Notes under the pieces: generated by a model
Databases searched by the model: none
Seen by the model: only the letters and a program-made list of their open reading frames with translations
What the model was told of the DNA's origin: nothing
Made by a program: the position numbers and the translations under genes
Shown here: one piece after another, positions 9,322 to 52,695 of the stretch
Numbering within the stretch: position 1 is the stretch's first letter
Layout: every line of letters begins with the position of its first letter
DNA from: Minisyncoccia bacterium
GTDB taxonomy: Bacteria > Patescibacteriota > Minisyncoccia > SW-4-49-11
DNA length: 64,000 bases
Reading direction: 5' to 3'
Assembly: GCA_044341565.1 (NCBI GenBank)
Contig: JBIIRM010000002.1
Coordinates: 1,812 to 65,811 of the forward strand

Positions 9322-9756
9322 ATGGCAAATAGGCACTTTATGAGATCAGTAGCAATGCAAACACTGTATCAGATTGATGTTGCTGATTTATGGGAATATG
9401 AACAACTTTGGGATATTATTCAAGAGTCTTTATATCGTTTAGCTGAGGGAATAGAGGATATTTCTTATATTAAAGAGGTTATTTCAGGAGTATTAGAGCA
9501 TCGTACTCAAATTGATGCGGCTATTAGTAAATATGCTACTGGTTGGGTGGTAGAGACTATTGCTCCTGTTGAGCGAAATATTTTGCGTCTTGCAATTTAT
9601 GAAATTGACTACTATCAAGATAAAGATATTCCTCCTAAAGTTGCTATCAATGAAGCTATTGAACTAGCCAAAGCATTTAGTGGACCCGCAGCGGGGAAAT
9701 TTGTCAATGGAATATTAGGAGGATTATATAAGGATAAAGAGCCTATGAGTGTATGA
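9322..9756 (+). CDS. nusB: Transcription antitermination factor NusB
   Basis: 144 aa. R.AMQ.LYQ N-terminus, [22 protein letters not shown]. Confidence 0.85.
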
Positions 9757-10433
9757 GTAGATTAGCCATACTACAAGAGAAAATTGGATACCATTTTAAG
9801 AATATTGATTTATTAGAGCAAGCTTTAACACATAGATCTTATCTTAATGAAAACCCAGCATTTAAACTTGGCCATAATGAAAGGTTTGAGTTTTATGGGG
9901 ATGCAATATTAGAAGATATTGTTACAGCCTATTTGTTTCATCATTATACTGATAAAAATGAAGGGGAATTAACTAATTTAAGGGCAGCTCTTGTTAGGGG
10001 AGCTCATTTAGCTGAAATAGCTGAGCGCTTGGAATTAGACCAGTATTTAAATATATCTAATGGCGAGCGTAATGATCCAGGAGCAAAATCTTATATTAAT
10101 GCTAATGCAATTGAGGCTTTAATAGCAGCTATTCGACTAGATGGGGGATATGAAGTGGCCCAGAATTTTATTGATACCTTTATTATTCCAGATATCGAGA
10201 TAATTATTAAAGAAAAATTATTTATTGATGCTAAAAGTGTATTTCAAGAAAAAATTCAAGAACAAAAAGGTATTACTCCTCGATATGAAGTTATTACGGA
10301 GAAGGGTCCAGACCATAATAAAATATTTGAAGTGGCAGTATATGTAGAAAATATTGAATATGGAAAAGGTAAAGGTGCTTCTAAACAAAAAGCAGAGCAG
10401 GATGCTGCAAAAAATGCACTTGATAACATATAA
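9753..10433 (+). CDS. rnc: Ribonuclease III
   Basis: [13 protein letters not shown] catalytic motif, [17 protein letters not shown], and a C-terminal dsRBD ([14 protein letters not shown]...[18 protein letters not shown]). 4-nt overlap with nusB. Confidence 0.9.
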
Positions 10434-22381: not shown

Positions 22382-22410
22382 TTGACAATTATTGATTCAT
22401 ATGCTATTAT
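22382..22410 (+). promoter_or_regulatory. Sigma70-type extended -10 promoter for rpsP
   Basis: TTGACA (22382-22387), 17-nt spacer ending in ATGC, TATTAT (22405-22410). Confidence 0.55.
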
Positions 22411-22891: not shown

Positions 22892-24658
22892 ATGCAATCA
22901 AAACGACCGTACAATAATAATTTACAGAATAAGAATAACCGTTCTCGATCTCAAGGAAAAAGTTTTGCTCAAAAAAGAACTATTCCTGAAACCTCACGCC
23001 AAGCTCTCAAGATAATTCCTTTGGGAGGCCTTGATGGTGTTGGCAAGAATATGTATATATTTGAACAAGAGAATGATATTCTGATTGTCGATATGGGGCT
23101 TCAAATGCCCGGTGCTAATCAACCAGGAATTGATTATATTATCCCCAATACACAATATTTGATGGATAATAGCTCCAAAATAAAGGGAGTAGTATTAACT
23201 TCACCACATCCCGATCATATTGGGGCTGTTCCATATCTTTTACATTTATTCCCTAATTTGCATATTTATGCAACCGAGGCTTTATTTGCAATATTGGAGT
23301 CTAGGCAAGATTTTTATTCTCAAGGGGTAAAATACAAAAAACATATTATTAAACCCTATAATTCTATACGAGTAGGATCCTTTAAAGTGAATGTTTTCCC
23401 AACTCCATTTAATGTTATGGGTTCAATAGGATTATGTGTGTATACTATGCAAGGAAAGGTATTTTATCTCTCTAGCTATAAATTGGATAGTGAATCTACA
23501 GAAAAAAATGAATTTCTCGATTATATAAAGGAATTAGCTGGAGCTGATACATTTGCTCTTTTATCAGGTAGTTCAGCTACAGAATCACAGGGATTTGCAC
23601 CGACAGAAGCATCTATTGCAGAACATATTGATTCGGTTATAGCTCGCAAGACAGGTGCTGTATTTGTGTCTACATTCCCCTCTATGATTGGGCGCATGCA
23701 ACAAATTGTCAATGCAATAGAAGCTCATAACAAGCATTTATTCATTGAAGGAAAAAGTTTACTTAATACTTTTAATACATGTCGCAAAAAGGGGCTTATT
23801 CAAATAAAATCAGGTACTATAGTAGGGCCTAGTTTACTCGGGGATACTCCAAGAGAGCAATTAGTAGTATTAATATCTGGTTCTCATGGAGATGATATTC
23901 CTCATTTGATGAGACTGGCTAATAATGAGCATAGTGTATTCTCAATTAAAGAAGGGGATATTGTTATGTATCCTGGGGCTTTAATTCCTGGAAATGCCCG
24001 TTCAGCAGCTCGAGTAAATGATAATTTTGCTAAATTAGGAGCTTTTGTAGAATATTATCAGCCATTAGATACACGATTTGGGGCTTATGGAAGACATGAA
24101 GATAGTCTAGCTGTATTAAAAGCAATTCGTCCTAAATATTATGTACCTATTAGTGGATCACATCATTTGTTGAGGTCTAATGGAGATATTGCCATTGAAG
24201 GTGGGTATCCAGATCGCAATGTTGTAGTTGGTATGAATGGAAAAGTTATTCTATTTGATTATAAACAAAGACGTATTACTCCGGAAAAAGTTCCTACTTC
24301 CAATGTAATTGTAGATGGGCTTGGAGTTGGTGATTTAACCAATGTAGTTATACATGATAGGCAAACAATGTCAGAAGAGGGTATATTCCATATTGTAGCC
24401 CTACTGAATGCAGATACTCGAGAAATATCAGGAGATATTGTGGTAGTATCAAAAGGATTTGTAGATAATGAATCTTCAGATAAATTATTTAATGAAGTAA
24501 AAGAACAAACAAGATTAATTGTATTAGCTCTTTTGAAACAATCTGATGAAGTAAATATTGCCTATATACAAGATCAAGTAAGAGAGAATATTGGTCGCTT
24601 ATTACTTACGAAAACGGAAAGAAGACCAATGATTTTACCAATAATAATGAATATTTAA
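22892..24658 (+). CDS. Ribonuclease J paralog with degenerate metal-binding motif and basic N-terminal extension
   Basis: 588 aa beta-CASP/metallo-beta-lactamase architecture collinear with the next gene. Motif 2 reads SPHPDH rather than HxHxDH. Confidence 0.8.
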   Translation: MQSKRPYNNNLQNKNNRSRSQGKSFAQKRTIPETSRQALKIIPLGGLDGVGKNMYIFEQENDILIVDMGLQMPGANQPGIDYIIPNTQYLMDNSSKIKGVVLTSPHPDHIGAVPYLLHLFPNLHIYATEALFAILESRQDFYSQGVKYKKHIIKPYNSIRVGSFKVNVFPTPFNVMGSIGLCVYTMQGKVFYLSSYKLDSESTEKNEFLDYIKELAGADTFALLSGSSATESQGFAPTEASIAEHIDSVIARKTGAVFVSTFPSMIGRMQQIVNAIEAHNKHLFIEGKSLLNTFNTCRKKGLIQIKSGTIVGPSLLGDTPREQLVVLISGSHGDDIPHLMRLANNEHSVFSIKEGDIVMYPGALIPGNARSAARVNDNFAKLGAFVEYYQPLDTRFGAYGRHEDSLAVLKAIRPKYYVPISGSHHLLRSNGDIAIEGGYPDRNVVVGMNGKVILFDYKQRRITPEKVPTSNVIVDGLGVGDLTNVVIHDRQTMSEEGIFHIVALLNADTREISGDIVVVSKGFVDNESSDKLFNEVKEQTRLIVLALLKQSDEVNIAYIQDQVRENIGRLLLTKTERRPMILPIIMNI

Positions 24659-24659
24659 T

Positions 24660-26435
24660 ATGAAATCGTATCAACACTCTGAAATTAAGAGAGGAACAAC
24701 TTTTGTGACAGATTTAAGTCATAAAAGTAATGACTATCTTAATGCAAAAGAACCATTTAAGACTAAAGATAATCTTTTGAAAATTATTCCACTGGGTGGA
24801 TCAGAAGAAATTGGAGGTCGTAATATGACGGTAATAGAATATGGAAAAGATATTCTCGTCATTGATATTGGGATGAAATTCCCAGAAGAAGATCAACCAG
24901 GAGTTGATTATATTATCCCCAATCCCAGTTATCTTAAGGGGAAAGAGGATAATATTCGAGCTGTACTAATTACGCATGGACATATGGATCATATTGGAGG
25001 AGTATCTCAGGTTATGTCTATGATTGGTAATCCTCCTATATATGCACCTGCCCTACCTCTTGCTATGATGCAAAGACGACAAAGTGAATTCACTACCGTG
25101 CCTCCATTAAATGGAAAAGTAGCTAAATTAAATGAAAAGCTTAAATTTGGAGTATTTACTGTAACCTTTCTTCATATTAATCACAGTATTCCAGATTCAA
25201 CTATGATTAAGATTGAAACTCCAGAAGGAGTTATTCTGCATACGGGAGATTTCAAAATAGATGCTACTCCTATTGGAGAAGAGCCAGCTAATTTGGAAAT
25301 GTATCGCAAAATTGGTGATGAGGGAGTATTGGTATTATTATCTGATAGTACTAGTGCTTCTCGTCCCGGAAGAGTAACTTCTGAGATGACAATTCAAAAT
25401 AATATTGATCATATTTTTGAGAATGCTACCGGTAAAATTATTGTTACTACATTTTCTAGTACACTCAATCGTATACAACAAATGATTCATTTATCTGAAA
25501 AATATAATCGTAAAGTTGTAATTGAAGGATTTAGTATGAAAACGAATGTTCAAATTCTCCATGAAATTGGATATGCACATTTTTCTCCTCAAACTGTTAT
25601 TAGTGCACAAGAGGCTCGTAATATTCCTCCAGAAAACCTTACTATTATTTGTACAGGAGCTCAGGGAGATGAACGCTCAGCCCTAACCCGTATGGCTAAT
25701 CGTGAGCATCGGAATTTCCATATTGAAAAGGGAGATACCGTAGTATTCTCATCTTCTGTAGTTCCAGGTAATGAGGAGTCAGTACAAAAGGTGAAAGATG
25801 CTATTGCTCGCCAAAGAGCTCATATTATTCATTATAAAATGATGGAAGTTCATGTTTCCGGACATGCACAAAGAGATGATTTAAAACAATTATTAGATTT
25901 AATTCGTCCTAAATATTTACAGCCAATTTATGGAGATTTTTATTCTCTCAAATCTCATCGTGATTTAGCTCTAGAAGTTGGTATGAAAAAAGATAATATC
26001 TTACTTACTGATAATGGAAGAATTATAGAAATATATAAGGGTGAAGCCCGTGTAACTACTGAGAAAGTTAATGCTAGCACTATGATGGTGGATGGACTCG
26101 GAGTAGGGGATTTAAAAGAAATTGTAATCCGAGATAGACAATCTTTGGCTCAAGATGGTATTGTAACGGTAGTAGCTTTAGTTGATTTCAAAAAGGGAAA
26201 GCTTATTCGTGAACCAGAAATTATTTCTAAGGGATTTGTACATATACAAACATCTACCAAATTAATACAATCTATACAAGCTCGAGTACAAGAGCATATT
26301 GAGAAGAAATTGTCTCATGGAGAAGATCAAAGTATTGAATATATTCAACAATCAATTCGTGAAGATTTAGGTCTATTCTTATTCAGAACTACCCATAGAA
26401 GACCAATGATTATACCGGTTATTATTGAAATATAA
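24660..26435 (+). CDS. rnj: Ribonuclease J
   Basis: 591 aa. LKIIPLGGSEEIGGRNM, canonical THGHMDHIGG, beta-CASP and C-terminal domains. Confidence 0.9.
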   Translation: MKSYQHSEIKRGTTFVTDLSHKSNDYLNAKEPFKTKDNLLKIIPLGGSEEIGGRNMTVIEYGKDILVIDIGMKFPEEDQPGVDYIIPNPSYLKGKEDNIRAVLITHGHMDHIGGVSQVMSMIGNPPIYAPALPLAMMQRRQSEFTTVPPLNGKVAKLNEKLKFGVFTVTFLHINHSIPDSTMIKIETPEGVILHTGDFKIDATPIGEEPANLEMYRKIGDEGVLVLLSDSTSASRPGRVTSEMTIQNNIDHIFENATGKIIVTTFSSTLNRIQQMIHLSEKYNRKVVIEGFSMKTNVQILHEIGYAHFSPQTVISAQEARNIPPENLTIICTGAQGDERSALTRMANREHRNFHIEKGDTVVFSSSVVPGNEESVQKVKDAIARQRAHIIHYKMMEVHVSGHAQRDDLKQLLDLIRPKYLQPIYGDFYSLKSHRDLALEVGMKKDNILLTDNGRIIEIYKGEARVTTEKVNASTMMVDGLGVGDLKEIVIRDRQSLAQDGIVTVVALVDFKKGKLIREPEIISKGFVHIQTSTKLIQSIQARVQEHIEKKLSHGEDQSIEYIQQSIREDLGLFLFRTTHRRPMIIPVIIEI

Positions 26436-40902: not shown

Positions 40903-40992
40903 AAATAGATATATTAATCATTACATAATTGTCTATAAGTATAGCATATATATCTCATAAAGTCAATCCATATGAGTGGTATTGTAATACAG

Positions 40993-41021
40993 TTGTTTTG
41001 TGTATATTTGTATGCTATACT
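40993..41021 (+). promoter_or_regulatory. Extended -10 promoter for the glycan locus
   Basis: TTGTTT, 17-nt spacer ending in ATGC, TATACT (41016-41021). Confidence 0.45.
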
Positions 41022-41049
41022 TTTACTATATTATAATACATATCATAAT

Positions 41050-41802
41050 ATGGAGTCCAATCTCACTTTGGGTGATATTATATCCAAAATACAAAGAAAA
41101 TTTAATACGGTTATTATTATAACACTTATTTTTGTATTAGTCGGAGTGGGTATTACTCTTATTATACCAAAACAATATAGGGGAGAATCTCAATTTGTTG
41201 TTATTCAAAAGGCAAATCCAGAAATTGACTCCTATACGGCACAAAGATCAATTGATTCTAAAGTAGATTTATTAGTGAATTTGGTATATACTGATACATT
41301 TTTTGCAAGTGTTACAGCGGATAATGTTGATATCAAGAATGCATTTCCTGAAAATCTGAAGGATAGAAGAACCGCATTTGCTCGTAATATTATTGTTGAA
41401 GCTAAGGGAACTGGTTTTGTCTCAGTATCAACCTATGATGTCTCCTCTGAACTTGCCCTTACTATGAATAAAGTCGTAGTGGATAAATTAATTGAACAGG
41501 CAAAGGTATTATTTGGAGAAACAGGTACTATTCAAGTTGTAAATCAATCATCTCTGTATGATGGAGTTGGGCGGCCAGATATTTTGGTTAATCTCTTGGG
41601 ATCAGCTCTATTAGGATTTTCTATTGCGATTGGATATGTTATTGCAAGGCGAGATCAAAGTATATCATATGATTTTGGTGTTGATAATTTTGTGTCCCCA
41701 CAACTTCCTGATGAATATGAAATAGCTGAAAACCCTATTATTGATTTAACTCCACCCCCATCTATAAGTCCAGATACAGAGTATGACTCAGATAAGTTCT
41801 AA
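41050..41802 (+). CDS. Wzz/chain-length-determinant-like membrane protein
   Basis: Start reassigned to the ATG at 41050 (MESNLTLGDI). N-terminal TM, then PKQYRGESQFVV; a second TM near the C-terminus. Confidence 0.5.
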   Translation: MESNLTLGDIISKIQRKFNTVIIITLIFVLVGVGITLIIPKQYRGESQFVVIQKANPEIDSYTAQRSIDSKVDLLVNLVYTDTFFASVTADNVDIKNAFPENLKDRRTAFARNIIVEAKGTGFVSVSTYDVSSELALTMNKVVVDKLIEQAKVLFGETGTIQVVNQSSLYDGVGRPDILVNLLGSALLGFSIAIGYVIARRDQSISYDFGVDNFVSPQLPDEYEIAENPIIDLTPPPSISPDTEYDSDKF

Positions 41803-43177
41803 TATAATTATTGGACTTGGGGCTATAAGTTTACTTATATGTATTTTACTTAATGCTCCTGGTATCATATTTGCGGCAGTTATTCTTAGTTGGGTATTTG
41901 TATTCATATTATCTATTTCTTTAGAAGTAGGTTTATTTACTTTGATTTTTTTACGGCCAGCTATAGATATTATTAGCCCTTTTACATTACCTGATTTTCC
42001 TATTATTAATTTGGGATCTACTATTGCTATAATGATAATAGTATTGTCATTCATATATATATATAAACACCGAATAGTAGTATATAATTCACATATCCCT
42101 TTAATGTGGAGTTTAGGACTGATTGTACTTGTATATATTATTTTTAGTTTTACAGGGATTTCATTGTTTGTCGGATTACAGGAAACAGTGAGAGTATTGA
42201 GTTTTATTATGCTCTATTTTGTGGGGTGGATATATGTTTCACATCAAAATAAATTAATGAATATAATGAGAGTTATTATATATGGGAGTATTATTCCACT
42301 ATTCGTTGCATATATTGAATATTTTTCTGGCACAGGATTATATACTAATCCTGGGTTTGAAAATCGTATTGCAGGTACATTTGGACATCCTAATGTACTT
42401 GCGTATTATTCTATTATTATCCTTGCATTAATTGGGAGTATATGGCTGAATAAGAATACTACTATTTCAATAGATGAAAAGAGATTATTAGGAAGTATTG
42501 GCTTATTATATATTATTATTCTTTTGGTTACTTTTACACGAGGTGCCTGGTTTGGGCTTATCATGTTAATTGCCTTAATAGGATTAATTAAATATCCACG
42601 TAAAAGTTTAATTATTACATCAATAGGATTAGGATTTATTGCTTTAGTATTATCTATATATCAGATTTTATCTCCCCCTACTGTTTTAGATTTACCGCCA
42701 CTAACTACTTTACCTGTGATTAATAGAGTATCAGGCTTATTTAATGCCGACCCCAGTGATTCGGTGATATGGAGATTAACTATGTGGACAGATATGTATG
42801 AAAAAGCCTGGGAGTCCCCTATAATAGGTTTTGGTACAGGAAGTTCTCAAATTATGGTTGAGCAAACACGAGGTACATTTAGAGGTTCTCTTGAAGTACA
42901 TAATGATTATATCAAAATATTCCTAGAACAAGGATTGATTGGCCTTATGATATATGGAATATTAATACTTAATATTCTAGGAGTATTATATTATCGCTAT
43001 ATACAGGGTAAAAATATCTATATTTTATATTTAGCATCCTTGATGACGGTGATTTATATAGTGAGTTTTTGGGATAATTTACTTCGTGGAACAGTATTAA
43101 TGTGGATATTATTCCTTTTATTGGGGGCAGTATTACATTATCAGAGTTTAGATAATAAATCAGATACGAGTATATGA
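41783..43177 (+). CDS. O-antigen ligase/polymerase-like (Wzy_C) polytopic membrane protein
   Basis: At least 10 predicted TM helices. TFTRGAWFGLIMLIALIG loop typical of Wzy_C proteins. Confidence 0.65.
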   Translation: MTQISSNIIIGLGAISLLICILLNAPGIIFAAVILSWVFVFILSISLEVGLFTLIFLRPAIDIISPFTLPDFPIINLGSTIAIMIIVLSFIYIYKHRIVVYNSHIPLMWSLGLIVLVYIIFSFTGISLFVGLQETVRVLSFIMLYFVGWIYVSHQNKLMNIMRVIIYGSIIPLFVAYIEYFSGTGLYTNPGFENRIAGTFGHPNVLAYYSIIILALIGSIWLNKNTTISIDEKRLLGSIGLLYIIILLVTFTRGAWFGLIMLIALIGLIKYPRKSLIITSIGLGFIALVLSIYQILSPPTVLDLPPLTTLPVINRVSGLFNADPSDSVIWRLTMWTDMYEKAWESPIIGFGTGSSQIMVEQTRGTFRGSLEVHNDYIKIFLEQGLIGLMIYGILILNILGVLYYRYIQGKNIYILYLASLMTVIYIVSFWDNLLRGTVLMWILFLLLGAVLHYQSLDNKSDTSI

Positions 43178-44238
43178 AAATTTTAGTATTAGGTCGACAA
43201 CATATAGCTAAATCAGAGGATATTATTAAAGGTCTTCAGGATTTGGGACATACTGTACATTATCTCCTTTTCCCTTCCCTCCAATATCCTCAAAATTATT
43301 ATACTACTCATACAGGAAATATATCGACTCTATCATATACATCCAAGATAGCATATTATTGGGGACATTATCATAGTATACGGAAATATATGACATCTCA
43401 TCTTGATACGGATTATGATTATATTTTAGCTATAGATTGGTTTGAGGGATATATTGCTCTTTCACTCCGAGATTATTTTAAGGATATCCCTATAATATAT
43501 TATGCCTATGATTATTATTTTTATTCTAATAGACTTTCATCACGCTATATTATTAACAAAATAGAGGCCTCAGTATATAAGCGGGCAAATATGGTCTGGG
43601 CTTTGAGTTCACAAATTATTATAGAACATGAAAAAAAACATATTAATAAATCTTTGGTATTGACTATACCATTAGGGATTCATACTCAAAAAATTGCTCC
43701 CTATAAACCCGATTCAAGACAAATACTCTTTATGGGTAATTTTAAAGAAGGGCATAATTTACGATTATTGGTAAATGTTTTTGCAAAATTATCTCCAGAC
43801 TATCATCTACATCTTATAGGTAAGGGTAATTTATATCAAGAAATTGAGAAAATAATTCAACCTGCAAGCTCTAATATTACTTTATATGGATTTCAAGATG
43901 AACAGCAAATACAAGAATTAGTAGTGAAGCATCATATTGGTTTTGGAATAGCTTTATATGAGAATACATTAGAAATATCTTGTGCTGATCCAGGGAAAAT
44001 TAAAGATTATCTTTCATTGGGGCTCCCAATTATTACTACTCCATATCCTAGTATAAGTAAGGATATACAAGAATATAATTTAGGATTAGTAATACAAGAT
44101 AATGAAGAAAGTTTATATACAACATTAATTCATATAGATGAAAATAATATGAATAAGTTTGCAAAAAATATTATAAGATACACTCAACAACATAGTTATG
44201 CTAAAATATTAGCTAAAGCTTTATCTCAGAGTAAATGA
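43174..44238 (+). CDS. Glycosyltransferase (GT-B fold, GT4-like)
   Basis: 354 aa. C-terminal half resembles Glycos_transf_1 (FMGNFKEGHN...LGLPIITTP). Confidence 0.5.
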   Translation: MKILVLGRQHIAKSEDIIKGLQDLGHTVHYLLFPSLQYPQNYYTTHTGNISTLSYTSKIAYYWGHYHSIRKYMTSHLDTDYDYILAIDWFEGYIALSLRDYFKDIPIIYYAYDYYFYSNRLSSRYIINKIEASVYKRANMVWALSSQIIIEHEKKHINKSLVLTIPLGIHTQKIAPYKPDSRQILFMGNFKEGHNLRLLVNVFAKLSPDYHLHLIGKGNLYQEIEKIIQPASSNITLYGFQDEQQIQELVVKHHIGFGIALYENTLEISCADPGKIKDYLSLGLPIITTPYPSISKDIQEYNLGLVIQDNEESLYTTLIHIDENNMNKFAKNIIRYTQQHSYAKILAKALSQSK

Positions 44239-44300: not shown

Positions 44301-44696
44301 ATGAAAAAGCTCTTTCTCCCTTTTGTAACAGCAATTTCAGTTCTATTCCCAATGGCAGCAACAGCTCAATGGTGGGGTGAATCTTTTGAAAGTATTGAAT
44401 ATAATGGGGTGATAATTCGCTCCGATATTCGTCCACGCACTATTATTTGTCCTATTGTGGAATCACAAGGATTACCTTGTGATGGATATCAAGGATTCAA
44501 TGCATCCACCAGGACTCATATTTTTAGAAATAATGGGAATTGGAATAATAATAGAAACTGGAATAATCAGTGGCAAAACCCAGGATGGAATAATAATCAA
44601 CATTGGAGACAGCCTAATTCAGGATGGAATAATAATGGAGGTTGCCTCTTCAAAAAATGGACGCGAGATGGTGGCTTTGCAATCGGGAATTGCTGA
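44301..44696 (+). CDS. Secreted Asn/Trp-rich small protein (island unit 1, host-like AT-rich composition)
   Basis: Signal peptide MKKLFLPFVTAISVLFPMAATAQ. NWNNNRNWNNQWQNPGWNNNQHWRQPNSGWNNNGG low-complexity block, encoded by a recurring TGGAATAATAAT unit. Cys residues flank the block. Confidence 0.7.
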   Translation: MKKLFLPFVTAISVLFPMAATAQWWGESFESIEYNGVIIRSDIRPRTIICPIVESQGLPCDGYQGFNASTRTHIFRNNGNWNNNRNWNNQWQNPGWNNNQHWRQPNSGWNNNGGCLFKKWTRDGGFAIGNC

Positions 44697-44718
44697 TACA
44701 TTATTTTCCAATCTCAAG

Positions 44719-44747
44719 CCGGTAGCAATAGCTGCCGGTATTTTTTT
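44719..44747 (+). terminator. Intrinsic terminator of island unit 1
   Basis: CCGGTAGC-aata-GCTGCCGG (one G.U pair), followed by TATTTTTTT. Confidence 0.65.
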
Positions 44748-44758
44748 GTTTTTATATC

Positions 44759-44787
44759 TTGACAAATAAGATATAATATGCTATAGT
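44759..44787 (+). promoter_or_regulatory. Extended -10 promoter of island unit 2
   Basis: TTGACA (44759-44764), 17-nt spacer ending in ATGC, TATAGT (44782-44787). Confidence 0.6.
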
Positions 44788-44812: not shown

Positions 44813-45124
44813 ATGAAAACTCTTACCAAGTTCATCGCCGGCGCTCTGCTGGCAGGCACCACACTTCTGACCGTGGCTCCCGCCACGGCTCAGTCCCTCA
44901 GCGGCAGGGTCGCCGTCGGACCCATCGGGTCCACCACGAGGGCCTGGACCTCGGTCTCCGAAGCTCAGTCCCTGTGTGCCCGCAATGGGTGCTGGGTGAC
45001 CGATGGGGTGGAGGTGTCACCCGGTAATTGGGTACCGAACACTCTGTTCCCGGGGGCGAAATCCCTCAGGGATTCAGCTGGGAACGGCCTGCTCGAGATT
45101 CCTCGAGCGACATCTCCTCGCTGA
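44813..45124 (+). CDS. High-GC secreted small protein, unknown function (island unit 2)
   Basis: 103 aa. Signal peptide MKTLTKFIAGALLAGTTLLTVAPATAQ. GC-rich third codon positions (gcc ggc gct ctg ctg gca ggc acc). Line 44881-44940 counts 44/60 G+C. Confidence 0.7.
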   Translation: MKTLTKFIAGALLAGTTLLTVAPATAQSLSGRVAVGPIGSTTRAWTSVSEAQSLCARNGCWVTDGVEVSPGNWVPNTLFPGAKSLRDSAGNGLLEIPRATSPR

Positions 45125-45150
45125 GGTGTCAGTTCAGTTTAGTTCAATAA

Positions 45151-45176
45151 GCCTCTGCAATGCAGGGGCCTTTTTT
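45151..45176 (+). terminator. Intrinsic terminator of island unit 2
   Basis: GCCTCTGC-aat-GCAGGGGC (one G.U pair), followed by CTTTTTT. Confidence 0.7.
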
Positions 45177-45199
45177 ATATATTGAAATGTTGTCAATAC

Positions 45200-45228
45200 T
45201 TGACTTTTTGGTTTAAATATGCTATTAT
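45200..45228 (+). promoter_or_regulatory. Extended -10 promoter of island unit 3
   Basis: TTGACT (45200-45205), 17-nt spacer ending in ATGC, TATTAT (45223-45228). Confidence 0.6.
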
Positions 45229-45255
45229 AGATCCGTCTTTCATGGGTTTATCCTA

Positions 45256-46254
45256 ATGAAAAAGTTCATTCCCATCTTGCTTGGCTCTGTTTTACTGGCT
45301 TCGGCTGGAAAGGCGGAGACATTGCCTTTGAGGCTCCAGATCAGCACCCCAGATTCCAATCGGGCGGTGAGGGTGATCATAAGTCCCAGTCAAGCGAAAG
45401 CCTCGGCAGGGCTGGTAACAGCTCGTCCTGGTTCCAATCCCTCGGACTGGGCACCTCAGTACAATAGACTGATTAACCAAAAGGCCCTCGGGTCTCGCGG
45501 TCAATCGGGTGCTGGGCTCACAGCAGGTACGCCTCGGCGTTTCTGTCTGGTGCCTTTGTACCAGGAGGTGAAAAATCTCTCTGCGCTCCCTTGTGGAGCT
45601 TATGGGGAGAGTATCAACTTCCGGTCCAATGGACCCCTTGCCTTCAGCCTTATCAGTGTCAAATCTGATGGTGGATGGCAATGGCTCGACAATGGGCCTA
45701 AGGGGGCTGGTACTGGTGGTCTTACTCTTGTAAGTTCACCAGGCTGGGAAGTTGCTGGGTGGGGACATACCTCAAAAGGGTATGTCCCCACCAGCAGGGG
45801 AGTATTCTTTGGCCCCATCTTCACGGGTGGGGACTTGGCTACCTCGAGGATTTTATCCTCGACTCCCGCCTCGGCGGTGAGGGAGCCTATCTGGCGTCTG
45901 CCAGATTCTGGGCTCAGGTTCCCGGCAGTGATCACGGTCAGCAATGATCGTATCACTCTCTCCACCACCCCCATTCCCGGGGCGCAATATTTCTTCCTCC
46001 CTCGGGAGGGCGGTATGTCGGTAGGACGCGAATTCATCGCAATTCAGCCAGGAGTAGCATTCCAAGCTGGAGTTCAGCTGAACTCCTCCGCTACCGATGC
46101 TGGCACCTTTGGTGCCAAGCTTCCCGATGGCAAGATTGCCTGGATTCAATGGGGATCTCGTCCTGATGGACGTGACACCCGGGTCAAGGTGATTAATCAA
46201 GGTGGTCAGCCCTGGGTTCAGCAAGGTTGGAGCTTGGTCCGCGTTCATCGCTGA
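45256..46254 (+). CDS. High-GC secreted protein, unknown function (island unit 3)
   Basis: 332 aa. Signal peptide MKKFIPILLGSVLLASAGKAE. G/P/S/W-rich mature part. Promoter, terminator and signal peptide all support the + strand over the open antisense frames. Confidence 0.75.
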   Translation: MKKFIPILLGSVLLASAGKAETLPLRLQISTPDSNRAVRVIISPSQAKASAGLVTARPGSNPSDWAPQYNRLINQKALGSRGQSGAGLTAGTPRRFCLVPLYQEVKNLSALPCGAYGESINFRSNGPLAFSLISVKSDGGWQWLDNGPKGAGTGGLTLVSSPGWEVAGWGHTSKGYVPTSRGVFFGPIFTGGDLATSRILSSTPASAVREPIWRLPDSGLRFPAVITVSNDRITLSTTPIPGAQYFFLPREGGMSVGREFIAIQPGVAFQAGVQLNSSATDAGTFGAKLPDGKIAWIQWGSRPDGRDTRVKVINQGGQPWVQQGWSLVRVHR

Positions 46255-46271
46255 TCAGACTCCTCATATCA

Positions 46272-46298
46272 GCCCTCACAATTTGTGGGGGCTTTTTT
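46272..46298 (+). terminator. Intrinsic terminator of island unit 3
   Basis: GCCCTCACA-att-TGTGGGGGC (one G.U pair), followed by TTTTTT. Confidence 0.7.
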
Positions 46299-46337
46299 AT
46301 TTCTCTCCAAAAACACTATAATAGATGTTGTTAGCTA

Positions 46338-46366
46338 TTGACAAAATCGTGTTTTTATGCTAGTAT
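46338..46366 (+). promoter_or_regulatory. Extended -10 promoter of island unit 4
   Basis: TTGACA (46338-46343), 17-nt spacer ending in ATGC, TAGTAT (46361-46366). The TTG of the -35 box is what the ORF track used as a start codon. Confidence 0.6.
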
Positions 46367-46394
46367 GCGAGAGTTCTTTACCAGGAGTTTTACG

Positions 46395-47528
46395 ATGAAA
46401 AATCGTAACATCTTGGGGATGTTTGCAATCGTTCTTCCACTACTTGCCCCTATGGGTGTCAAGGCGGAGAATTTGCTCTCATCACCTCAATCGAATATCC
46501 AGGCAGAAATGCCTCGGAGACTCTCAACTCGAGAGCAAGCAGCTGAGCTTCGCGCCATGCGTGAAGCTGCCGAGGCTCGTAATGCTGGAAGTGTTCCGCA
46601 AATGTCACAGACTCCACCTGGACCACCACCGGTTTTGCCGGTAACTCAGGTTGTGACACAACAACCTGTCAATCCTGTGGTTGCAGGACCTGTTGTTACC
46701 CCTTTTCAAAAGGGCGGTGGAGAATCCTCCCTGTTCGGTGGTAATAACACCAATATCAGGGGGGAGGCAGAGTACAGTAGCACTCCCAGCCAGATCAATT
46801 CCAAGGCTGGAGTCACGCTGGCTCCCAAGGGGAAACCTTTCCTGATGCAAGTTACCGGCTATCAAAGCTCGGGAACTTGCCCAGCAGGTCCGGGAGGTAC
46901 TTGTTCCTATGATTCCAGTAAGCTGGATATCTATGGGGCTCTGAGAGGCTGGTCTTCCACTACCGAGTGGAATGCTGGTCCCTTTGTCCGTTTCCAGCAG
47001 AATAATGCTAATGGGACTTGGAAAAGCCCCGATGGTCTTTATTCCGGTGAATGGAAGTCGGATAAGCCTCAGACTGATGTCGGTATCCGAGCCCGGATTC
47101 GTCATCGCCTGGACCCCAAGTCTTCCGCCAATCCTTGGATTGGTGCAGGTGGCGAATACGATTTCGCCAATGGAGGCTATGACGCCTTCGGCGAAGGCGG
47201 TATTCGCCCCGGCAACTCCAAGAATCCCTGGAATCTGTATGTCCAGGGGGGTGTGAATACTGACGGAGGATATTTTTATCCCGAGGTCACCACACCTAAT
47301 CTGGTGGGGGATGCCAATTCGAAGCTGCAGGTCCAGCTTCAGGCAAAGGGAGTTCTTTATGGCCTCGGCCGTGATAACTCCACTAGTCGAGTTGAACTCG
47401 GGGCCCCCATCACCCTGAATCTCAGCCGCAATACGGCTATTCAGGTGGTGCCAGCCTATGTGCTGGGACTCGACTCCAATACCCGCTCAGGGTTTGGGGG
47501 CACAGTAAAGCTCCGCTTCGGCTTCTGA
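46395..47528 (+). CDS. Moderately high-GC secreted protein with outer-membrane beta-barrel hallmarks (island unit 4)
   Basis: Start reassigned to the ATG at 46395, with GGAG 8 nt upstream. Signal peptide MKNRNILGMFAIVLPLLAPMGVKAE, a Pro-rich stretch, then a G/N/Y/W-rich region with alternating-hydrophobic strands. The protein ends in GGTVKLRFGF* (terminal Phe, hydrophobic at -3, -5, -7). Confidence 0.75.
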   Translation: MKNRNILGMFAIVLPLLAPMGVKAENLLSSPQSNIQAEMPRRLSTREQAAELRAMREAAEARNAGSVPQMSQTPPGPPPVLPVTQVVTQQPVNPVVAGPVVTPFQKGGGESSLFGGNNTNIRGEAEYSSTPSQINSKAGVTLAPKGKPFLMQVTGYQSSGTCPAGPGGTCSYDSSKLDIYGALRGWSSTTEWNAGPFVRFQQNNANGTWKSPDGLYSGEWKSDKPQTDVGIRARIRHRLDPKSSANPWIGAGGEYDFANGGYDAFGEGGIRPGNSKNPWNLYVQGGVNTDGGYFYPEVTTPNLVGDANSKLQVQLQAKGVLYGLGRDNSTSRVELGAPITLNLSRNTAIQVVPAYVLGLDSNTRSGFGGTVKLRFGF

Positions 47529-47606
47529 AGTAAAACCAAAAATGATAGCAACTAACCCCTCACGGGGAGCAGTCGCCTTGACCATCTCTGGTTTTATACC
47601 CCTATA

Positions 47607-47640
47607 TCTCCAGCTGCTTGCAGTTGGGGATTTTCATTTT
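47607..47640 (+). terminator. Intrinsic terminator of island unit 4
   Basis: TCTCCAGCTG-cttg-CAGTTGGGGA (two G.U pairs), followed by TTTTCATTTT. Confidence 0.65.
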
Positions 47641-47687
47641 GTAAGAATATAGGCTATAATAGATTTTATATCTGCTCTTTTAGATTC

Positions 47688-47879
47688 ATGAGACGCAACC
47701 CAGTCTTACTGATTATATCTATTTTGGTAGCTGTAATCATTCAGCATAGTATTGCCGAAGAAGATATTATGTCAGAGAATATTCCTCATCAGTCTCAGGT
47801 ACTGCTTAGTATTTTGTCTCTCCTCTCAGGTTTGATTGGAGCTGATATATTTATGACAGGTATTCGACTCATTTGGTAA
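47688..47879 (+). CDS. Small hydrophobic (two-TM) protein, unknown function (island unit 5)
   Basis: 63 aa, MRRNPVLLIISILVAVIIQHS...LLSILSLLSGLIGADIFMTGI. TATAAT at 47655-47660 upstream and a hairpin downstream. By eye its GC looks intermediate between host and island (not counted). Confidence 0.45.
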   Translation: MRRNPVLLIISILVAVIIQHSIAEEDIMSENIPHQSQVLLSILSLLSGLIGADIFMTGIRLIW

Positions 47880-47896
47880 TGCTTCAACTTTAGGTT

Positions 47897-47930
47897 CACT
47901 CTCAATTCGAGGGTGGGCTTTTCTTTATTT
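47897..47930 (+). terminator. Intrinsic terminator of island unit 5
   Basis: CACTCTC-aattc-GAGGGTG (one G.U pair), followed by GGCTTTTCTTTATTT. Confidence 0.55.
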
Positions 47931-47946
47931 CAGTTGTTGAAAACTT

Positions 47947-47975
47947 TTGACATTTGAGTCAAAATATGCTATAAT
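47947..47975 (+). promoter_or_regulatory. Extended -10 promoter of the downstream glycosyltransferase gene
   Basis: TTGACA (47947-47952), 17-nt spacer ending in ATGC, TATAAT (47970-47975). Confidence 0.6.
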
Positions 47976-48006
47976 TTATATTAATTAGATTACTATTAGT
48001 ATTTTC

Positions 48007-49188
48007 ATGAAAATTGCTTTTATAGGTCAAAAAGGTATTCCTGCCTCAGCTGGGGGTGGTGTGGAGAACTATGTTGATAATATTGCAGTGAGACTTGCTC
48101 GACGGAACCATGATATTATTGTTTATACACGTAAATCCTATGCTCCTGAAGGGAATTATAAAGGGGTACAGGTAATTGAAACCCCTTCTATTGCCACCAA
48201 AAGTTTGGATGCTATTACTCATACATTTACTTCTATTTGGAATAGTTTTTTTATCCCAGATTTGGATGTACTTCATATCAATTCAGTGGGCCCCGCCTTA
48301 TTAACTCCATTTGCTCGCCTCGGATTTGCTATCAAATATCTATTTGGACATAGATATACCAAGGTGGTATTTACATTTCATAGTGCTGATTGGTATCATG
48401 GAAAATGGAATCTTTTTGCTAAGTCAATGTTAAAATTAGGGGCTTGGACAGGATGTCATTTTGCTGATGAAGTAGTAACAGTTTCTAAGAGTTTACGCTA
48501 TTTTATATCTCGAGAATTTGATATTAAGGCTACTTATATACCAAATGGTACCGTGTTTAATCATATTAGTTCTGATTCAAAATTAGCCAAATTTGGTCTC
48601 AAAAAACAAGGCTATATTGTATTTATTGCAAGACTAGTTAAACATAAAAATGCTCATATTTTGATACAGGCGTATCAGCAAATGGCTCATAAATATGGGA
48701 AAAAGCTTGTTATTGTGGGAGGACCTTCTTATACCAGAGAATATGAACAATATCTTCATGATTTAGCAGATGGAGATAAAAATATTATATTTACCGGTCA
48801 TCAATTAGGCAGAACATTAAAACAATTATTTGCTAATGCAGCAATATATGTTCTTCCATCATCTTCAGAGGGATTATCTATTTCTCTTTTGGAGGCAGGA
48901 AGTTATGGAATTCCTGTTATTGTATCCGATATTCGCGAAAATCTTGAAATTGTGGGGGATCTTGGGCATATTGCAAAGGTGAATAATATTGCTTCTCTCA
49001 AACATCAATTAGAGCATGTATTGGGGGATTATCGAGGAGCTTTGGAACTTGCGGACATATTACAAGAGGAAATACGGTATCATTATTCTTGGAATCATAT
49101 TATAAAAGCTCTTGAAAATGTATATCAGAGAGACTCTCGTCTATATAGGGGTGCTGGTATTCAGGTTACGGCAGCTTTGAAATATTAA
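48007..49188 (+). CDS. Glycosyltransferase family 4 (GT-B)
   Basis: MKIAFIGQKGIPASAGGGVENYV N-terminus; C-terminal PSSSEGLSISLLEAGSYGIPVIVSD (E-x7-E-type region). Confidence 0.8.
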   Translation: MKIAFIGQKGIPASAGGGVENYVDNIAVRLARRNHDIIVYTRKSYAPEGNYKGVQVIETPSIATKSLDAITHTFTSIWNSFFIPDLDVLHINSVGPALLTPFARLGFAIKYLFGHRYTKVVFTFHSADWYHGKWNLFAKSMLKLGAWTGCHFADEVVTVSKSLRYFISREFDIKATYIPNGTVFNHISSDSKLAKFGLKKQGYIVFIARLVKHKNAHILIQAYQQMAHKYGKKLVIVGGPSYTREYEQYLHDLADGDKNIIFTGHQLGRTLKQLFANAAIYVLPSSSEGLSISLLEAGSYGIPVIVSDIRENLEIVGDLGHIAKVNNIASLKHQLEHVLGDYRGALELADILQEEIRYHYSWNHIIKALENVYQRDSRLYRGAGIQVTAALKY

Positions 49189-49193
49189 TAGAT

Positions 49194-50480
49194 ATGAAAA
49201 AAGTCTCTCCCAAAAAGAGAATTTTGACTATATTAGGTATTATACTATTGATTATTATTAGTATAAGTCTTATTATTTGGGGAATTATTTGGTCTCAATA
49301 TAGACAGGAAATTAATTTGGCTCAAGCTATACAAAAACAGGGAGATGTCACCTATTTAGTATTATTCCAGAACACCTTAGAATTAAGACCAACAGGGGGA
49401 TTTGTAGGTAATTTTGCAGAAGTTACTTTGAGTAAAGGAAAAGTGAAAAAGTATACTATTTATAATACGAATGCCTTTGATTATGGAAAGCCTGGTATTA
49501 ATGCTCCTGAGCCTATAAAAATTATGCTAGGAGTCGATACATTACAAATGAGAGATGGAAATTGGTCTCCAGATTTTCCTACTACAGCAAAACAAATGAT
49601 TGATTTATATAAATTGGAGGGGGGAAGTCAAAATATAAATGGTATTATTGCAGTAAATGCTGCTGTTCTCCCTGAAATATTAAAAATTATTGGGCCAGTG
49701 AATGTAGAGGGAATAGATGGAGAATTAAATGCCGATAATGTATTATTATCTGTACAATATGAACTTAATTTTGGATTTATTGATAAGGGGATAAGTCGTG
49801 CTGACCGTAAAGAGCCTATTAAAAATTTAGCAGTTGAAGTAGAGAAGAGAATTCGCAAAGCCTCTCCTCAAACATTATATAAAATTGGGAATATGCTTAT
49901 AGAGCAGGCTAATCAAAAGCAACTATTATTATGGAGCTCAGATCAAAAAGTACAAGATAAAGTTGAGACTTTGAATTGGGATGGGGCTATTGAGAATAAT
50001 GGGGAGGGGGATTATTTTATGTTAGTAGATGCTAATTTAGGTTCTCTCAAAACAGATTATTATATGAAGCGAGATATTAGTAAAACAGTTAATACTTGTG
50101 GGGACAAATTATGCTCCACAATTACCATACGATATACTAATACTGCTCAGACTGCCTCACCTCTCAATAATGATTATAAGTCATATAGTAGAATATTATT
50201 ACCACAAAATGCTTTTATTAATACTATTACTGGTATTGAAAAAGACAAAATTGACTATAATAGCGAATATAATAAAAAAGTAGCAGGATTTCAAATAGAT
50301 ATTCCTTTTAATAGTACTAAGGATATTTTCATTGATTATACTATTCCCAAAACTCAACAATATAGTTTGCAAATTCAAAAACAGCCAGGTATTGCAGGAT
50401 TTGGATTTAATTTAGATTATAAGCCAAAGTCAAAACAAGTATCTGAATATATTAATTCTGATTGGAATTGGAAAGAATAA
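49194..50480 (+). CDS. DUF4012-domain membrane-anchored protein
   Basis: N-terminal TM. LFQNTLELRPTGGFVGNFAEV is the characteristic DUF4012 motif. Confidence 0.7.
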   Translation: MKKVSPKKRILTILGIILLIIISISLIIWGIIWSQYRQEINLAQAIQKQGDVTYLVLFQNTLELRPTGGFVGNFAEVTLSKGKVKKYTIYNTNAFDYGKPGINAPEPIKIMLGVDTLQMRDGNWSPDFPTTAKQMIDLYKLEGGSQNINGIIAVNAAVLPEILKIIGPVNVEGIDGELNADNVLLSVQYELNFGFIDKGISRADRKEPIKNLAVEVEKRIRKASPQTLYKIGNMLIEQANQKQLLLWSSDQKVQDKVETLNWDGAIENNGEGDYFMLVDANLGSLKTDYYMKRDISKTVNTCGDKLCSTITIRYTNTAQTASPLNNDYKSYSRILLPQNAFINTITGIEKDKIDYNSEYNKKVAGFQIDIPFNSTKDIFIDYTIPKTQQYSLQIQKQPGIAGFGFNLDYKPKSKQVSEYINSDWNWKE

Positions 50481-52618: not shown

Positions 52619-52695
52619 TGGTGTACCTAAGAGGGTTCGAACCTCTGACCTCAGGTTCCGCAAACCTGCGCTCTATCCAACTGAGCTATAGGTAC
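52619..52695 (-). tRNA. tRNA-Arg (anticodon GCG), CCA encoded
   Basis: The reverse complement GTACCTATAGCTCAGTTGGATAGAGCGCAGGTTTGCGGAACCTGAGGTCAGAGGTTCGAACCCTCTTAGGTACACCA folds as a perfect cloverleaf. Anticodon loop is TTGCGGA. Confidence 0.9.

Follow-up and report, generated by a model that had tools for sequence, protein, structure and literature searches.

The Cassette and Its Locus

Three adjacent plus-strand genes, p103, p332, and p377, form a GC-rich cassette within a surface-glycan locus of contig JBIIRM010000002.1. The window is the whole 64-kb stretch of this contig that was analysed, and its GC content is 33.8%. Labels give the length of each product in amino acids (aa), here as for p131, p63, and p139 below. 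The locus has the order Wzz, Wzy_C, GT4, cassette, GT4, DUF4012, so that the genes for exported proteins adjoin those for a Wzy_C-family enzyme and glycosyltransferases. An earlier note on this DNA had described p103 and p332 as secreted proteins of high GC content with no recognizable family. Both open reading frames (ORFs) are indeed present on the plus strand, that of 103 aa at 44813-45124 and that of 332 aa at 45256-46254, and they contain the motifs that the note had quoted: LCARNGCW (CARNGC) in the smaller protein, and DGGWQWLDNGPKGAGTGG and GWEVAGWGHTSKGYVP in the larger. The features of the cassette are listed here; dN/dS denotes the ratio of nonsynonymous to synonymous substitution rates and OMP an outer-membrane protein.

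44759..44787 (+): promoter of p103; TTGACA, 17-nt spacer, TG-extended TATAGT (consensus scan, 11/12 matches plus TG)
44813..45124 (+): p103, small exported protein; predicted signal peptide at about residues 1-26, mature part of about 77 aa, Cys loop C55/C60 (ORF, alignment, dN/dS)
45151..45178 (+): intrinsic terminator of p103; 8-bp GC-rich stem and T run (terminator scan)
45200..45228 (+): promoter of p332; TTGACT, 17-nt spacer, TG-extended TATTAT (scan; repeat family D1)
45256..46254 (+): p332, exported, predicted all-beta; signal peptide at about residues 1-20, invariant mature N-terminus ETLPL-L-I, C97/C113
45752..45798 (+): hairpin inside the p332 coding sequence, at the codons for VAGWGHTSKGYVPTSR (inverted repeat I5; 20-bp stem in the window)
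46271..46300 (+): intrinsic terminator of p332; 10-bp stem and T run
46338..46366 (+): promoter of p377; TTGACA, 17-nt spacer, TG-extended TAGTAT
46395..47528 (+): p377, third gene of the cassette; signal peptide, helix (REQAAELRAMREAAEARN), variable Pro/Ala-rich linker, and C-terminal predicted 14-strand OMP-like beta-barrel
47606..47631 (+): intrinsic terminator of p377

As predicted by scan, each of the three genes is a separate transcription unit with its own promoter (a -35 element, a 17-nt spacer, and an extended -10 element) and its own terminator. The promoters constitute a 41-nt repeat family. Exact copies of the motif TTGAC-N15-TGNTANNNT number six in the 64 kb, where 0.12 would be expected: at 22382-22410 (+), at 40938-40966 (-), and at 44759, 45200, 46338, and 47947 (all +). 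Four of the six are clustered here, before p103, p332, p377, and the downstream GT4 gene, and one copy lies upstream of the gene for ribosomal protein L31. Because the motif recurs in this way, including at the L31 gene, the cassette promoters can be regarded as the organism's own strong promoters. Written as TTGAC-N15-TGCTAnnnT, often ATATGCTAT, the module looks like the consensus strong promoter of the lineage. The start of p377 is placed at the ATG at 46395 rather than at the beginning of the TTG ORF that spans 46338-47528, because AGGAG lies upstream of this ATG and the promoter falls inside the longer ORF.

Composition and Codon Usage

In 1-kb steps across the whole 64 kb, the GC content rises above 0.40 only at 45001-48000, where it reaches 0.46-0.53. 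At 200-nt resolution the high values, 0.52-0.65, are limited to the three coding sequences, and the intervening spacers have values of 0.39-0.45. The GC content and the GC content at third codon positions (GC3) are 0.63 and 0.70 for the p103 gene, 0.56 and 0.55 for p332, and 0.54 and 0.51 for p377, compared with 0.29-0.36 and 0.16-0.21 for seven other genes. The earlier note was thus right to call the composition of p103 and p332 high in GC and the most deviant in the window, though the third gene, at 46395-47528, is equally deviant, and the coordinates of the first two take in two thirds of the anomaly.

Codon choice in the cassette is inverted relative to the genome. TTA is used at a frequency of 0.03 in the cassette versus 0.49 in the genome, CTG at 0.34 versus 0.04, ATC at 0.59 versus 0.06, and AAG at 0.67 versus 0.23. 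The proteins contain much G, A, P, S, T, R, and W and little K, I, and N; in p332 the sum of G, A, P, R, and W is about 39%, against a background of 21%, and all three codon positions are enriched in GC. A tRNA-Arg with anticodon GCG, found by ARAGORN at 52619-52695 (-), may matter for decoding the CGC-rich genes of the cassette. In most bacteria, CGU and CGC are read by a tRNA with an ACG (inosine) anticodon.

Authenticity of p103 and p332

The loci used for comparison were obtained from exact-protein look-ups (L001-L005), from a GTDB genome (L006), and from JGI metagenomes (L007-L012); L013 is the locus of a remote p332 homologue, designated P0022. The closest genome is a metagenome-assembled genome of Ca. 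Saccharibacteria, CAZPCB010000001.1, with 96% protein identity. An ORF of 103 codons is unremarkable in GC-rich DNA, and the case for the genes therefore rests on comparison with eight orthologous loci. Antisense ORFs of 129-166 aa are present in the same GC-rich stretch.

In the plus frames of both p103 and p332 the third codon position is the least conserved. Identity is 0.83-0.88 at position 2 and 0.42-0.53 at position 3 in p103, with dN/dS of 0.16-0.25; the corresponding values for p332 are 0.87-0.91, 0.55-0.66, and 0.14-0.19. Indels are in frame (for example, CARNGC versus CQQGC in p103), and the Cys pairs are invariant: C55/C60, in a C-x3/4-C loop, in p103, and C97/C113 in p332. The mature parts of both proteins are highly conserved, that of p103 across a 17-sequence alignment in which the signal peptide is variable; throughout, the sequence of the signal peptide varies while its architecture is kept. 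This architecture, judged by eye as a basic n-region, a hydrophobic core, and an A-x-A-like (small-x-small) site, is found in all full-length homologues of the three families (n = 21, 17, and 25). No lipobox Cys occurs in the exported proteins of the cassette. The antisense ORFs behave differently. None of at least 60 aa lies over p103 in the window, and L002 has one of 126 aa; those of 129-145 aa over p332 shrink to 55-70 aa in L002, and antisense ORFs differ from locus to locus. The wobble pattern, the dN/dS values, and the inconstancy of the antisense ORFs show that the antisense frames, which the earlier note had kept in view, are not the real genes. p103 and p332 are genuine plus-strand genes, under purifying selection and equipped with export signals, and the conserved architecture of these signals supports the prediction that both products are secreted.

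It has to be asked whether the plus-strand ORFs could be artefacts of GC-rich DNA, with antisense genes, or a non-coding RNA that is structured, as the true products. Very stable folding is predicted for the region, and gene callers put antisense genes of 67-126 aa over p103 in other assemblies. This alternative is nonetheless close to negligible, because the wobble pattern and dN/dS fit the plus frames only, indels are in frame, signal peptides and Cys pairs are conserved where antisense ORFs are not, the neighbouring protein p377 yields a confident predicted fold, and no Rfam family is matched at E <0.06. An Rfam scan at a permissive E value returned chance-level matches on the terminator only.

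p103 is uncalled in the source assembly, and related assemblies carry spurious antisense calls of 67-126 aa over it, as in L002 at 9515-9895 (-) and L005 at 9698-9901 (-). Such missed or wrong-strand calls are artefacts of annotation that arise where DNA is GC-rich within an otherwise AT-rich genome, and they make p103 a practical annotation problem in public assemblies. Two similarities were seen around the cleavage regions. p332 and p377 have in common a 23-nt stretch, 78% identical (45303-45325 and 46454-46476), covering the codons for the last residues of the signal peptide and for the cleavage region (GKAETL and VKAENL); p103 and p131 have ATAQ in common at the cleavage region.

Families, Relatives, and Distribution

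Searches of Pfam, NCBIfam, and PHROGs (E 0.1 to 1 or less) placed p103, p332, p377, and p131 in no family, and searches of the PDB with the three family profiles gave nothing better than E 0.5. These empty searches bear out the earlier note's statement that no family is recognizable, and no homology to a housekeeping family came to light. Among 5.8 billion clusters, p332 is represented by 21 clusters at 74-100% identity, and word-indexed search of the same clusters found 29 for p377 and 10 for p103. The exact p103 of the window is absent from a collection of 15 billion proteins, in which the best match is 88% identical. A HMMER search of 1.84 billion representatives with the p332 family profile recovered its own cluster, one remote relative, and one chance match, the last being a repetitive protein of 1015 aa.

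The remote relative, P0022, matches at E 3.9e-37 with about 31% identity to p332. It is encoded in another Saccharibacteria assembly (L013, 1076-2092) in an equivalent place, directly after a GT4 gene and before a gene for GDP-mannose 4,6-dehydratase. The gene is equipped with a strong promoter and a terminator of its own, and its GC content is 0.50 versus 0.40-0.46 for its neighbours. No barrel gene adjoins it. P0022 is preceded by p139 (L013, 489-908), an unrelated, GC-elevated exported protein of 139 aa with a C-terminal Cys pair, which has no similarity to p103 or p131. At the loci other than L013 the gene order is as in the window. The checks of remote homology and phylogenetic distribution that the earlier note had proposed thus gave one remote relative of p332 and a family restricted to Saccharibacteria and to the same glycan locus.

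IMG/VR yielded no relatives of p332 or p377, and tblastn against plasmids yielded none of p377. A mobile-element carrier was considered and is unsupported, there being no IMG/VR or plasmid match. Paralogues of the cassette proteins are absent from the window, and a profile-profile comparison of p332 with p377 indicated no relation. Judged by their sequences, p103 and p332 are family-less exported proteins of one Saccharibacteria (TM7) lineage. Searches of the literature turned up no description of the cassette; they covered S-layer proteins, beta-barrels, and GC-rich surface genes in Saccharibacteria.

Self-Pairing of the Coding Sequences

Selection of coding sequences for RNA secondary structure was reportedly described by Katz and Burge in 2003 and serves as a comparison for what follows. 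Against dinucleotide-preserving shuffles the p103 transcript has a folding z of -4.6, the first and second halves of p332 have -3.6 and -8.2, and those of p377 have -5.0 and -6.6; the two flanking GT4 genes have +1.45 and +0.91. Shuffles of synonymous codons, which leave the protein and the codon usage unchanged, give z of -4.3 to -8.2 for p332 (8/8 orthologues), -1.8 to -5.3 for p103 (8/8 orthologues), and -5.7 to -11.4 for p377, where the alternative allele of L005 has -6.5. Nine control genes, among them GT4a, GT4b, Wzy, DUF4012, L25, DUF11, p131, and p63, range from +1.5 to -2.4. The excess is present in all 28 of the 28 island coding sequences examined and holds when shuffling is confined to blocks of 40 codons. 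It extends to the remote homologue P0022, which at 31% identity has z of -7.8; the small gene upstream of it has -2.6, and the neighbours have +1.5 and +0.5.

In a consensus structure of p332 from nine orthologues, 44 helices hold 264 pairs, and 93.6% of cells are paired. Both partners have changed in 24 pairs, compared with 13.9 +/- 2.4 in column shuffles (0/500) and 6-16 in slid controls. The hairpin at 45752-45798 is kept in 9/9 orthologues and folds with -15.6 to -35.5 kcal/mol; its region of the consensus includes helices 23 and 24, which are 97-100% paired.

Extreme structure of coding sequences has been estimated to affect about 2.5% of bacterial ORFs, and homologues from different species were found to be uncorrelated in this respect (Gebert, Jehn and Rosenkranz 2019, PMC6544989). 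The cassette genes resemble the structured ORFs of that survey (PMC6544989) in that their synonymous arrangement pairs far more than do shuffles preserving protein and codon usage. They differ from them in that the feature is found in three adjacent genes, in every orthologue and a homologue of 31% identity, and is coupled to a local GC island.

Exchange of Alleles and Stability of the GC Content

Comparison of the window with L006 shows that the Wzy and GT4b genes are identical and the GT4a and DUF4012 genes 97-99% identical, yet codons 1-80 of p332 (45256-45495) are only 87% identical. Conversely, codons 1-80 of p377 in the window (46395-46635) are 99% identical to those of L011 (6162-6400), where the flanks are just 66-77% identical. 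In its flanks L005 is second only to L006 in closeness to the window, but its barrel is different and its p103 and p332 have an unrelated-looking genealogy. In general, the trees of the island genes disagree with those of the flanks. These mosaic tracts and conflicting trees mark the cassette as a recombination hot spot at which alleles pass between lineages, as they typically do in exposed components of the surface.

GC3 among orthologues is 0.52-0.62 for p332, 0.60-0.77 for p103, and 0.48-0.54 for p377, compared with 0.13-0.30 for the flanks, and third-position identity between cassette alleles is just 0.42-0.69. The consensus of the p332 alleles has a GC3 of 0.575, versus a mean of 0.561 for the extant sequences; for p377 the values are 0.547 and 0.521. 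In simulations matched to the observed GC3 and pairwise identity, the consensus has a GC3 of 0.68-0.76 under amelioration toward 0.20 and of 0.57 under stationarity. Since the observed consensus is not clearly richer in GC than the extant alleles, the composition fits stationarity and not parallel decay from a GC-richer ancestor; the test assumes a star tree, and it is subject to recombination and to third positions that are not all neutral. Recent differences between the window and L006, polarised with outgroups, comprise 37 changes from G or C to A or T (S-to-W) versus 18 in the opposite direction (W-to-S) in the island, and 19 versus 17 in the flanks, in a small sample of which most lie in recombination tracts. 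A fixation bias toward G/C would be expected to produce this combination of a recent flux toward AT and stationarity over the long term. Polarisation by singletons was discarded: the flank control gave 207 W-to-S and 20 S-to-W changes in genes at equilibrium, a parsimony artefact.

A search for genes and repeats at the borders of the cassette found no integrase, tRNA target, or terminal repeats; the repeats seen there are the shared promoter module and intragenic repeats only. The cassette keeps one position in lineages that differ in their flanking genes by a synonymous divergence (dS) of 1.3-3.0. The high GC content is most likely not the residue of a recent transfer but a long-lived, near-stationary state. 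An ancient transfer may be the ultimate origin of the cassette.

Predicted Folds and Related Systems

The predicted structure of p377 is a closed antiparallel barrel of 14 strands that resembles solved OMP folds. The N-terminal part that precedes it comprises the signal peptide, a helix that is conserved, and a Pro/Ala linker that is hypervariable. In several strands hydrophobic residues alternate with polar ones, and the faces of the barrel are moderately hydrophobic only. The protein ends in ...VKLRFGF, and the family in ...[KR][LVF][RH][FI][GA][FL], with a terminal F in 25/29. In L005 (11105-12337) the stalk of p377 carries a non-homologous C-terminal domain that ends in ...LRAGIRF. According to Troman et al. 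(bioRxiv 10.64898/2026.03.03.709456), Saccharibacteria have no outer membrane, and a barrel of this kind is therefore unexpected. No outer-membrane or BAM gene is present in the 64 kb or its flanks. p377 was compared with the 14-strand OMPs OmpG, FadL/TodX, PorV, and CymA, and with the stalked proteins FapF and OmpM. It differs from the OmpG/FadL/FapF/OmpM class in showing no sequence similarity, in having no SLH domain, and in belonging to a phylum described as being without an outer membrane.

Genes for S-layer and surface glycoproteins lie beside glycosylation (slg) clusters in Gram-positive bacteria, and stable mRNA is characteristic of S-layer genes. The present locus is similar in that a gene for a secreted protein, with a strong promoter, stands among genes for a Wzy_C-family enzyme, glycosyltransferases, and a chain-length determinant. 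It is dissimilar in that Pfam finds no SLH or CWB domain and in that p332 is much smaller than typical S-layer proteins.

The structure predicted for p332 is of low confidence, with a predicted local distance difference test score (pLDDT) of 46. The first residues of the mature protein, ETLPLRLQIS (45316-45345), are invariant in the family and alternate hydrophobic and polar residues like the donor strand of strand-exchange pili. A comparison is provided by the Pam pilins (PamA/PamB) of Saccharimonadia, which are found only in the candidate phyla radiation (CPR), have masses of 35-55 kDa and Ig-like folds, were unannotated before their structures were solved, and are implicated in host contact (bioRxiv 10.64898/2026.03.03.709456). 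In M. amalyticus they are Sec-exported, disulfide-containing, all-beta orphans and the second and ninth most abundant proteins; their architecture is a nine-strand beta-sandwich N-terminal domain, a linker donor strand, and a truncated Ig-like C-terminal domain (bioRxiv 10.64898/2026.03.03.709456). The pam operon also encodes membrane-anchored, PapD/FimC-like chaperones (PamC/D), a tip pilin, and the anchor PamR, and lies beside ATP synthase genes (bioRxiv 10.64898/2026.03.03.709456). Like the Pam pilins, p332 has a Sec signal peptide, paired Cys residues, a putative all-beta structure, and a possible N-terminal donor strand. Unlike them, it has no detectable similarity to any PDB chain. Its neighbours, too, are different: they are p131, p377, p63, and glycan enzymes, with no PamC/PamD-like chaperone bearing a transmembrane helix at the C terminus, and the locus is a glycan cluster with neither an ATP synthase gene nor any chaperone-like gene within 10 kb on either side of the cassette.

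Discussion

The explanation favoured here, with moderate confidence, is that the cassette encodes abundant exported proteins of the envelope or of host contact, that its GC content is kept high by selection for structured mRNAs, and that its alleles are exchanged between lineages. Within the Wzy-type surface-glycan locus, p103, p332, and p377 would most likely be abundant components of the outermost envelope or of host contact. The role proposed for p332 is that of a structural or adhesive subunit, all-beta and probably Ig/FN3-like, with a single disulfide; it may carry glycans and may polymerise by way of the invariant strand at its N terminus. p103 would be its small, disulfide-looped partner. 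The earlier note left the function of the two proteins in this organism open, and the roles given to them here are inferred. Maintenance of the high GC content would be coupled to the excess of intramolecular pairing at synonymous sites. The most economical mechanism would be selection for compact, G:C-paired, nuclease-resistant, and hence long-lived mRNAs for envelope proteins expressed at a high level. RNase III and two paralogues of RNase J are encoded by this AT-rich cell, in which selection on mRNA structure would oppose an AT-biased mutation pressure. Homologous recombination would exchange the alleles, as expected for exposed surface proteins.

Several observations weigh against this explanation. 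The self-complementarity is largely strand-symmetric, the antisense strand having z of -1.7 to -10.5. The ratio of G:U to A:C is 1.27:1 in the cassette overall and 1.24:1 in the flanks and so does not discriminate, with p332 alone at 1.49:1. About 60% of the minimum-free-energy pairs predicted from single sequences are identical in other orthologues, and much of the structure is lineage-specific. The net loss of GC from the island differs from 1:1 (p = 0.014) and fits a mutation pressure of 2.8:1 (p = 0.29). The proteins contain no cell-wall anchor, lipobox, or known glycosylation motif that could be found, and their putative abundance is deduced from the quality of the promoters. Across species, moreover, the structuredness of coding sequences is uncorrelated with expression (Gebert et al. 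2019, PMC6544989). Against a cause at the level of DNA, the excess is larger in the sense strand in most cases, for example -59 versus -31 kcal/mol for p332 of L002 and -84 versus -70 kcal/mol for p377 of the window. Because of the strand symmetry and the flank-like G:U ratio, a cause at the level of DNA is possible and selection at the level of RNA is not proven; such selection is still the most natural reading of the excess pairing.

An AT-rich genome with a GC-rich segment invites the interpretation that the cassette is a horizontally acquired island, still ameliorating, from a GC-rich and probably diderm donor, and that the GC content, the codons, and the barrel are what the donor left behind. 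The cassette has much in common with acquired islands: GC of 0.54-0.63 versus 0.34 for the genome, alien codon usage opposite to that of the host, and genes for surface or secreted proteins. GC is raised at every codon position, with an amino-acid make-up like that of high-GC organisms, an OMP-type barrel ending in ...RFGF occurs in a phylum described as being without an outer membrane, and the recent net flux is S-to-W (37 versus 18). What is missing is the donor and the vehicle. No homologue of p332 exists outside the Saccharibacteria clade in 5.8 billion clusters or, by profile, in 1.84 billion representatives, and none of p377 or p103 in the word-indexed search of 5.8 billion clusters, the only one made for these two; viral contigs (p332 and p377) and plasmids (p377) contain none either. 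Acquired islands would be expected to bring mobility genes, a tRNA target, or border repeats and to be patchily present among close relatives; here there is no integrase, tRNA, or terminal repeat at the borders, all related loci have the cassette at one and the same site, the position is identical across flank dS of 1.3-3 and in the relative of 31% identity, and native AT-rich strong promoters and terminators separate the genes. Amelioration predicts a consensus GC3 of 0.68-0.76 and not the stationary 0.575 that is observed, and horizontal transfer does not explain folding z of -4 to -11. Transfer of this kind is accordingly considered unlikely. A fixation bias without selection on RNA would arise if GC-biased gene conversion (gBGC) in a recombination hot spot, with heteroduplex repair favouring G/C, kept the cassette GC-rich. 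The clear mosaic tracts and the conflict between island and flank trees speak for it, and long-term stationary GC3 with a recent S-to-W bias is the classic signature of a fixation bias. Gene conversion lifts the GC content, however, and creates no self-complementarity, which at fixed codon usage reaches z of -4 to -11 and persists in the remote homologue. The rise in GC also ends sharply at the ends of the coding sequences, though the spacers are constrained by promoter and terminator function. Moreover, gBGC of such a size, sufficient to take GC3 from 0.2 to 0.55-0.7, is not known to be established in bacteria, and we regard it as a poor candidate here.

The nearly strand-symmetric folding excess leads to another proposal, in which the inverted repeats act as DNA, either as single-stranded hairpins in transformation or recombination that aid the spread of the cassette or as by-products of template switching, and the stability of the mRNA is irrelevant. 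That the cassette moves between lineages would fit, as would a G:U versus A:C asymmetry no stronger than in the flanks, apart from the modest 1.49:1 of p332. The larger excess in the sense strand in most cases is harder to accommodate, the feature is found exactly where strongly promoted coding sequences are transcribed, and the repeat search revealed no known repeated motif resembling an uptake sequence; a role confined to DNA therefore seems quite improbable. The cassette could also be a device directed at the host and not part of the cell's own envelope. In that case the secreted barrel would enter the host bacterium's outer membrane (or mycomembrane) and serve there as a feeding pore or a toxin, and p332 and p103 would target or chaperone it. 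This would account for an OMP-like barrel in a phylum reported to be without an outer membrane; the helical stalk and Pro-rich linker could span the gap between cells, and non-homologous barrel alleles on the same stalk, together with allele turnover, fit an arms race over host specificity. The proposal is purely inferential and strikes us as rather far-fetched: P0022 has no adjoining barrel, so that p332 is not dependent on one, the faces of the barrel are only moderately hydrophobic, and neither BamA or other insertion machinery nor a host is known. A bolder version of selection on nucleic-acid structure holds that ultrasmall, presumed single-membrane epibionts have long kept a set of GC-rich, hyper-paired envelope genes by this means, including a true OMP-type barrel that sits in an unrecognised outer layer or in the outer membrane of the host, with p332 and p103 as its partners. 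This, too, is improbable. If true, the cassette would represent a long-lived compositional island of a new kind, one that selection has made, and also a portion of the interface for nutrient uptake that has long been sought in CPR bacteria.

Atypical GC islands are routinely read as recent transfer. The cassette is a counter-example, with no detectable donor, with native promoters and stationary GC3, and with synonymous sites arranged for pairing. It differs from acquired islands in having no mobility genes, tRNA target, border repeats, or known donor, and in its fixed position across deeply diverged lineages, its native promoters, and its stationary GC3. Every orthologue has retained the trait, as has a homologue with almost no sequence similarity left, and the cassette is a clean natural system for gauging the strength of selection on mRNA or DNA structure against mutation bias. 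Three strongly promoted, recombining, exported orphans are nominated as candidates for the surface or host contact of Saccharibacteria, one of them a porin-like barrel that is unexpected in a monoderm. A surface location and high abundance of the three proteins, mRNA stability as the selected trait, and any physical interaction among p103, p332, and p377 are all putative.

Surroundings of the Cassette

The genes on either side of the cassette are as follows.

40972..44238 (+): Wzz-like, Wzy_C (O-antigen ligase / O-oligosaccharyltransferase family), and GT4 glycosyltransferase genes; upstream glycan flank (Pfam; same synteny in all relatives)
44301..44696 (+): p131, exported, W/N-rich, with NWNN-type tandem repeats and a C-terminal Cys pair (ORF; repeat families D2, D3)
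44718-44739: terminator of p131 (terminator scan)
47688..47879 (+): p63, small hydrophobic or membrane protein downstream of the cassette (promoter 47631-47660, terminator 47892-47920)
48007..50480 (+): GT4 glycosyltransferase and DUF4012 protein; downstream glycan flank (Pfam; strong-type promoter at 47947-47975 before GT4)

p131 lies upstream of the cassette in all relatives, at 39-86% identity; its GC3 of 0.29 is only mildly raised, and its folding z is -1.4. The remainder of the window has the usual content of CPR genomes: RNase III, two RNase J paralogues, TagA/WecG, a pseudopilin, and tRNA synthetases. The RNase J paralogues are in tandem, at 22892-26435, and have ordinary AT-rich composition. 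The same composition is seen in a 992-aa GLUG/LamG surface protein at 308-3286 (-), and in a pseudopilin-like protein at 6864-9017 in which an N-terminal methylation motif is fused to DUF5122 beta-propeller repeats.

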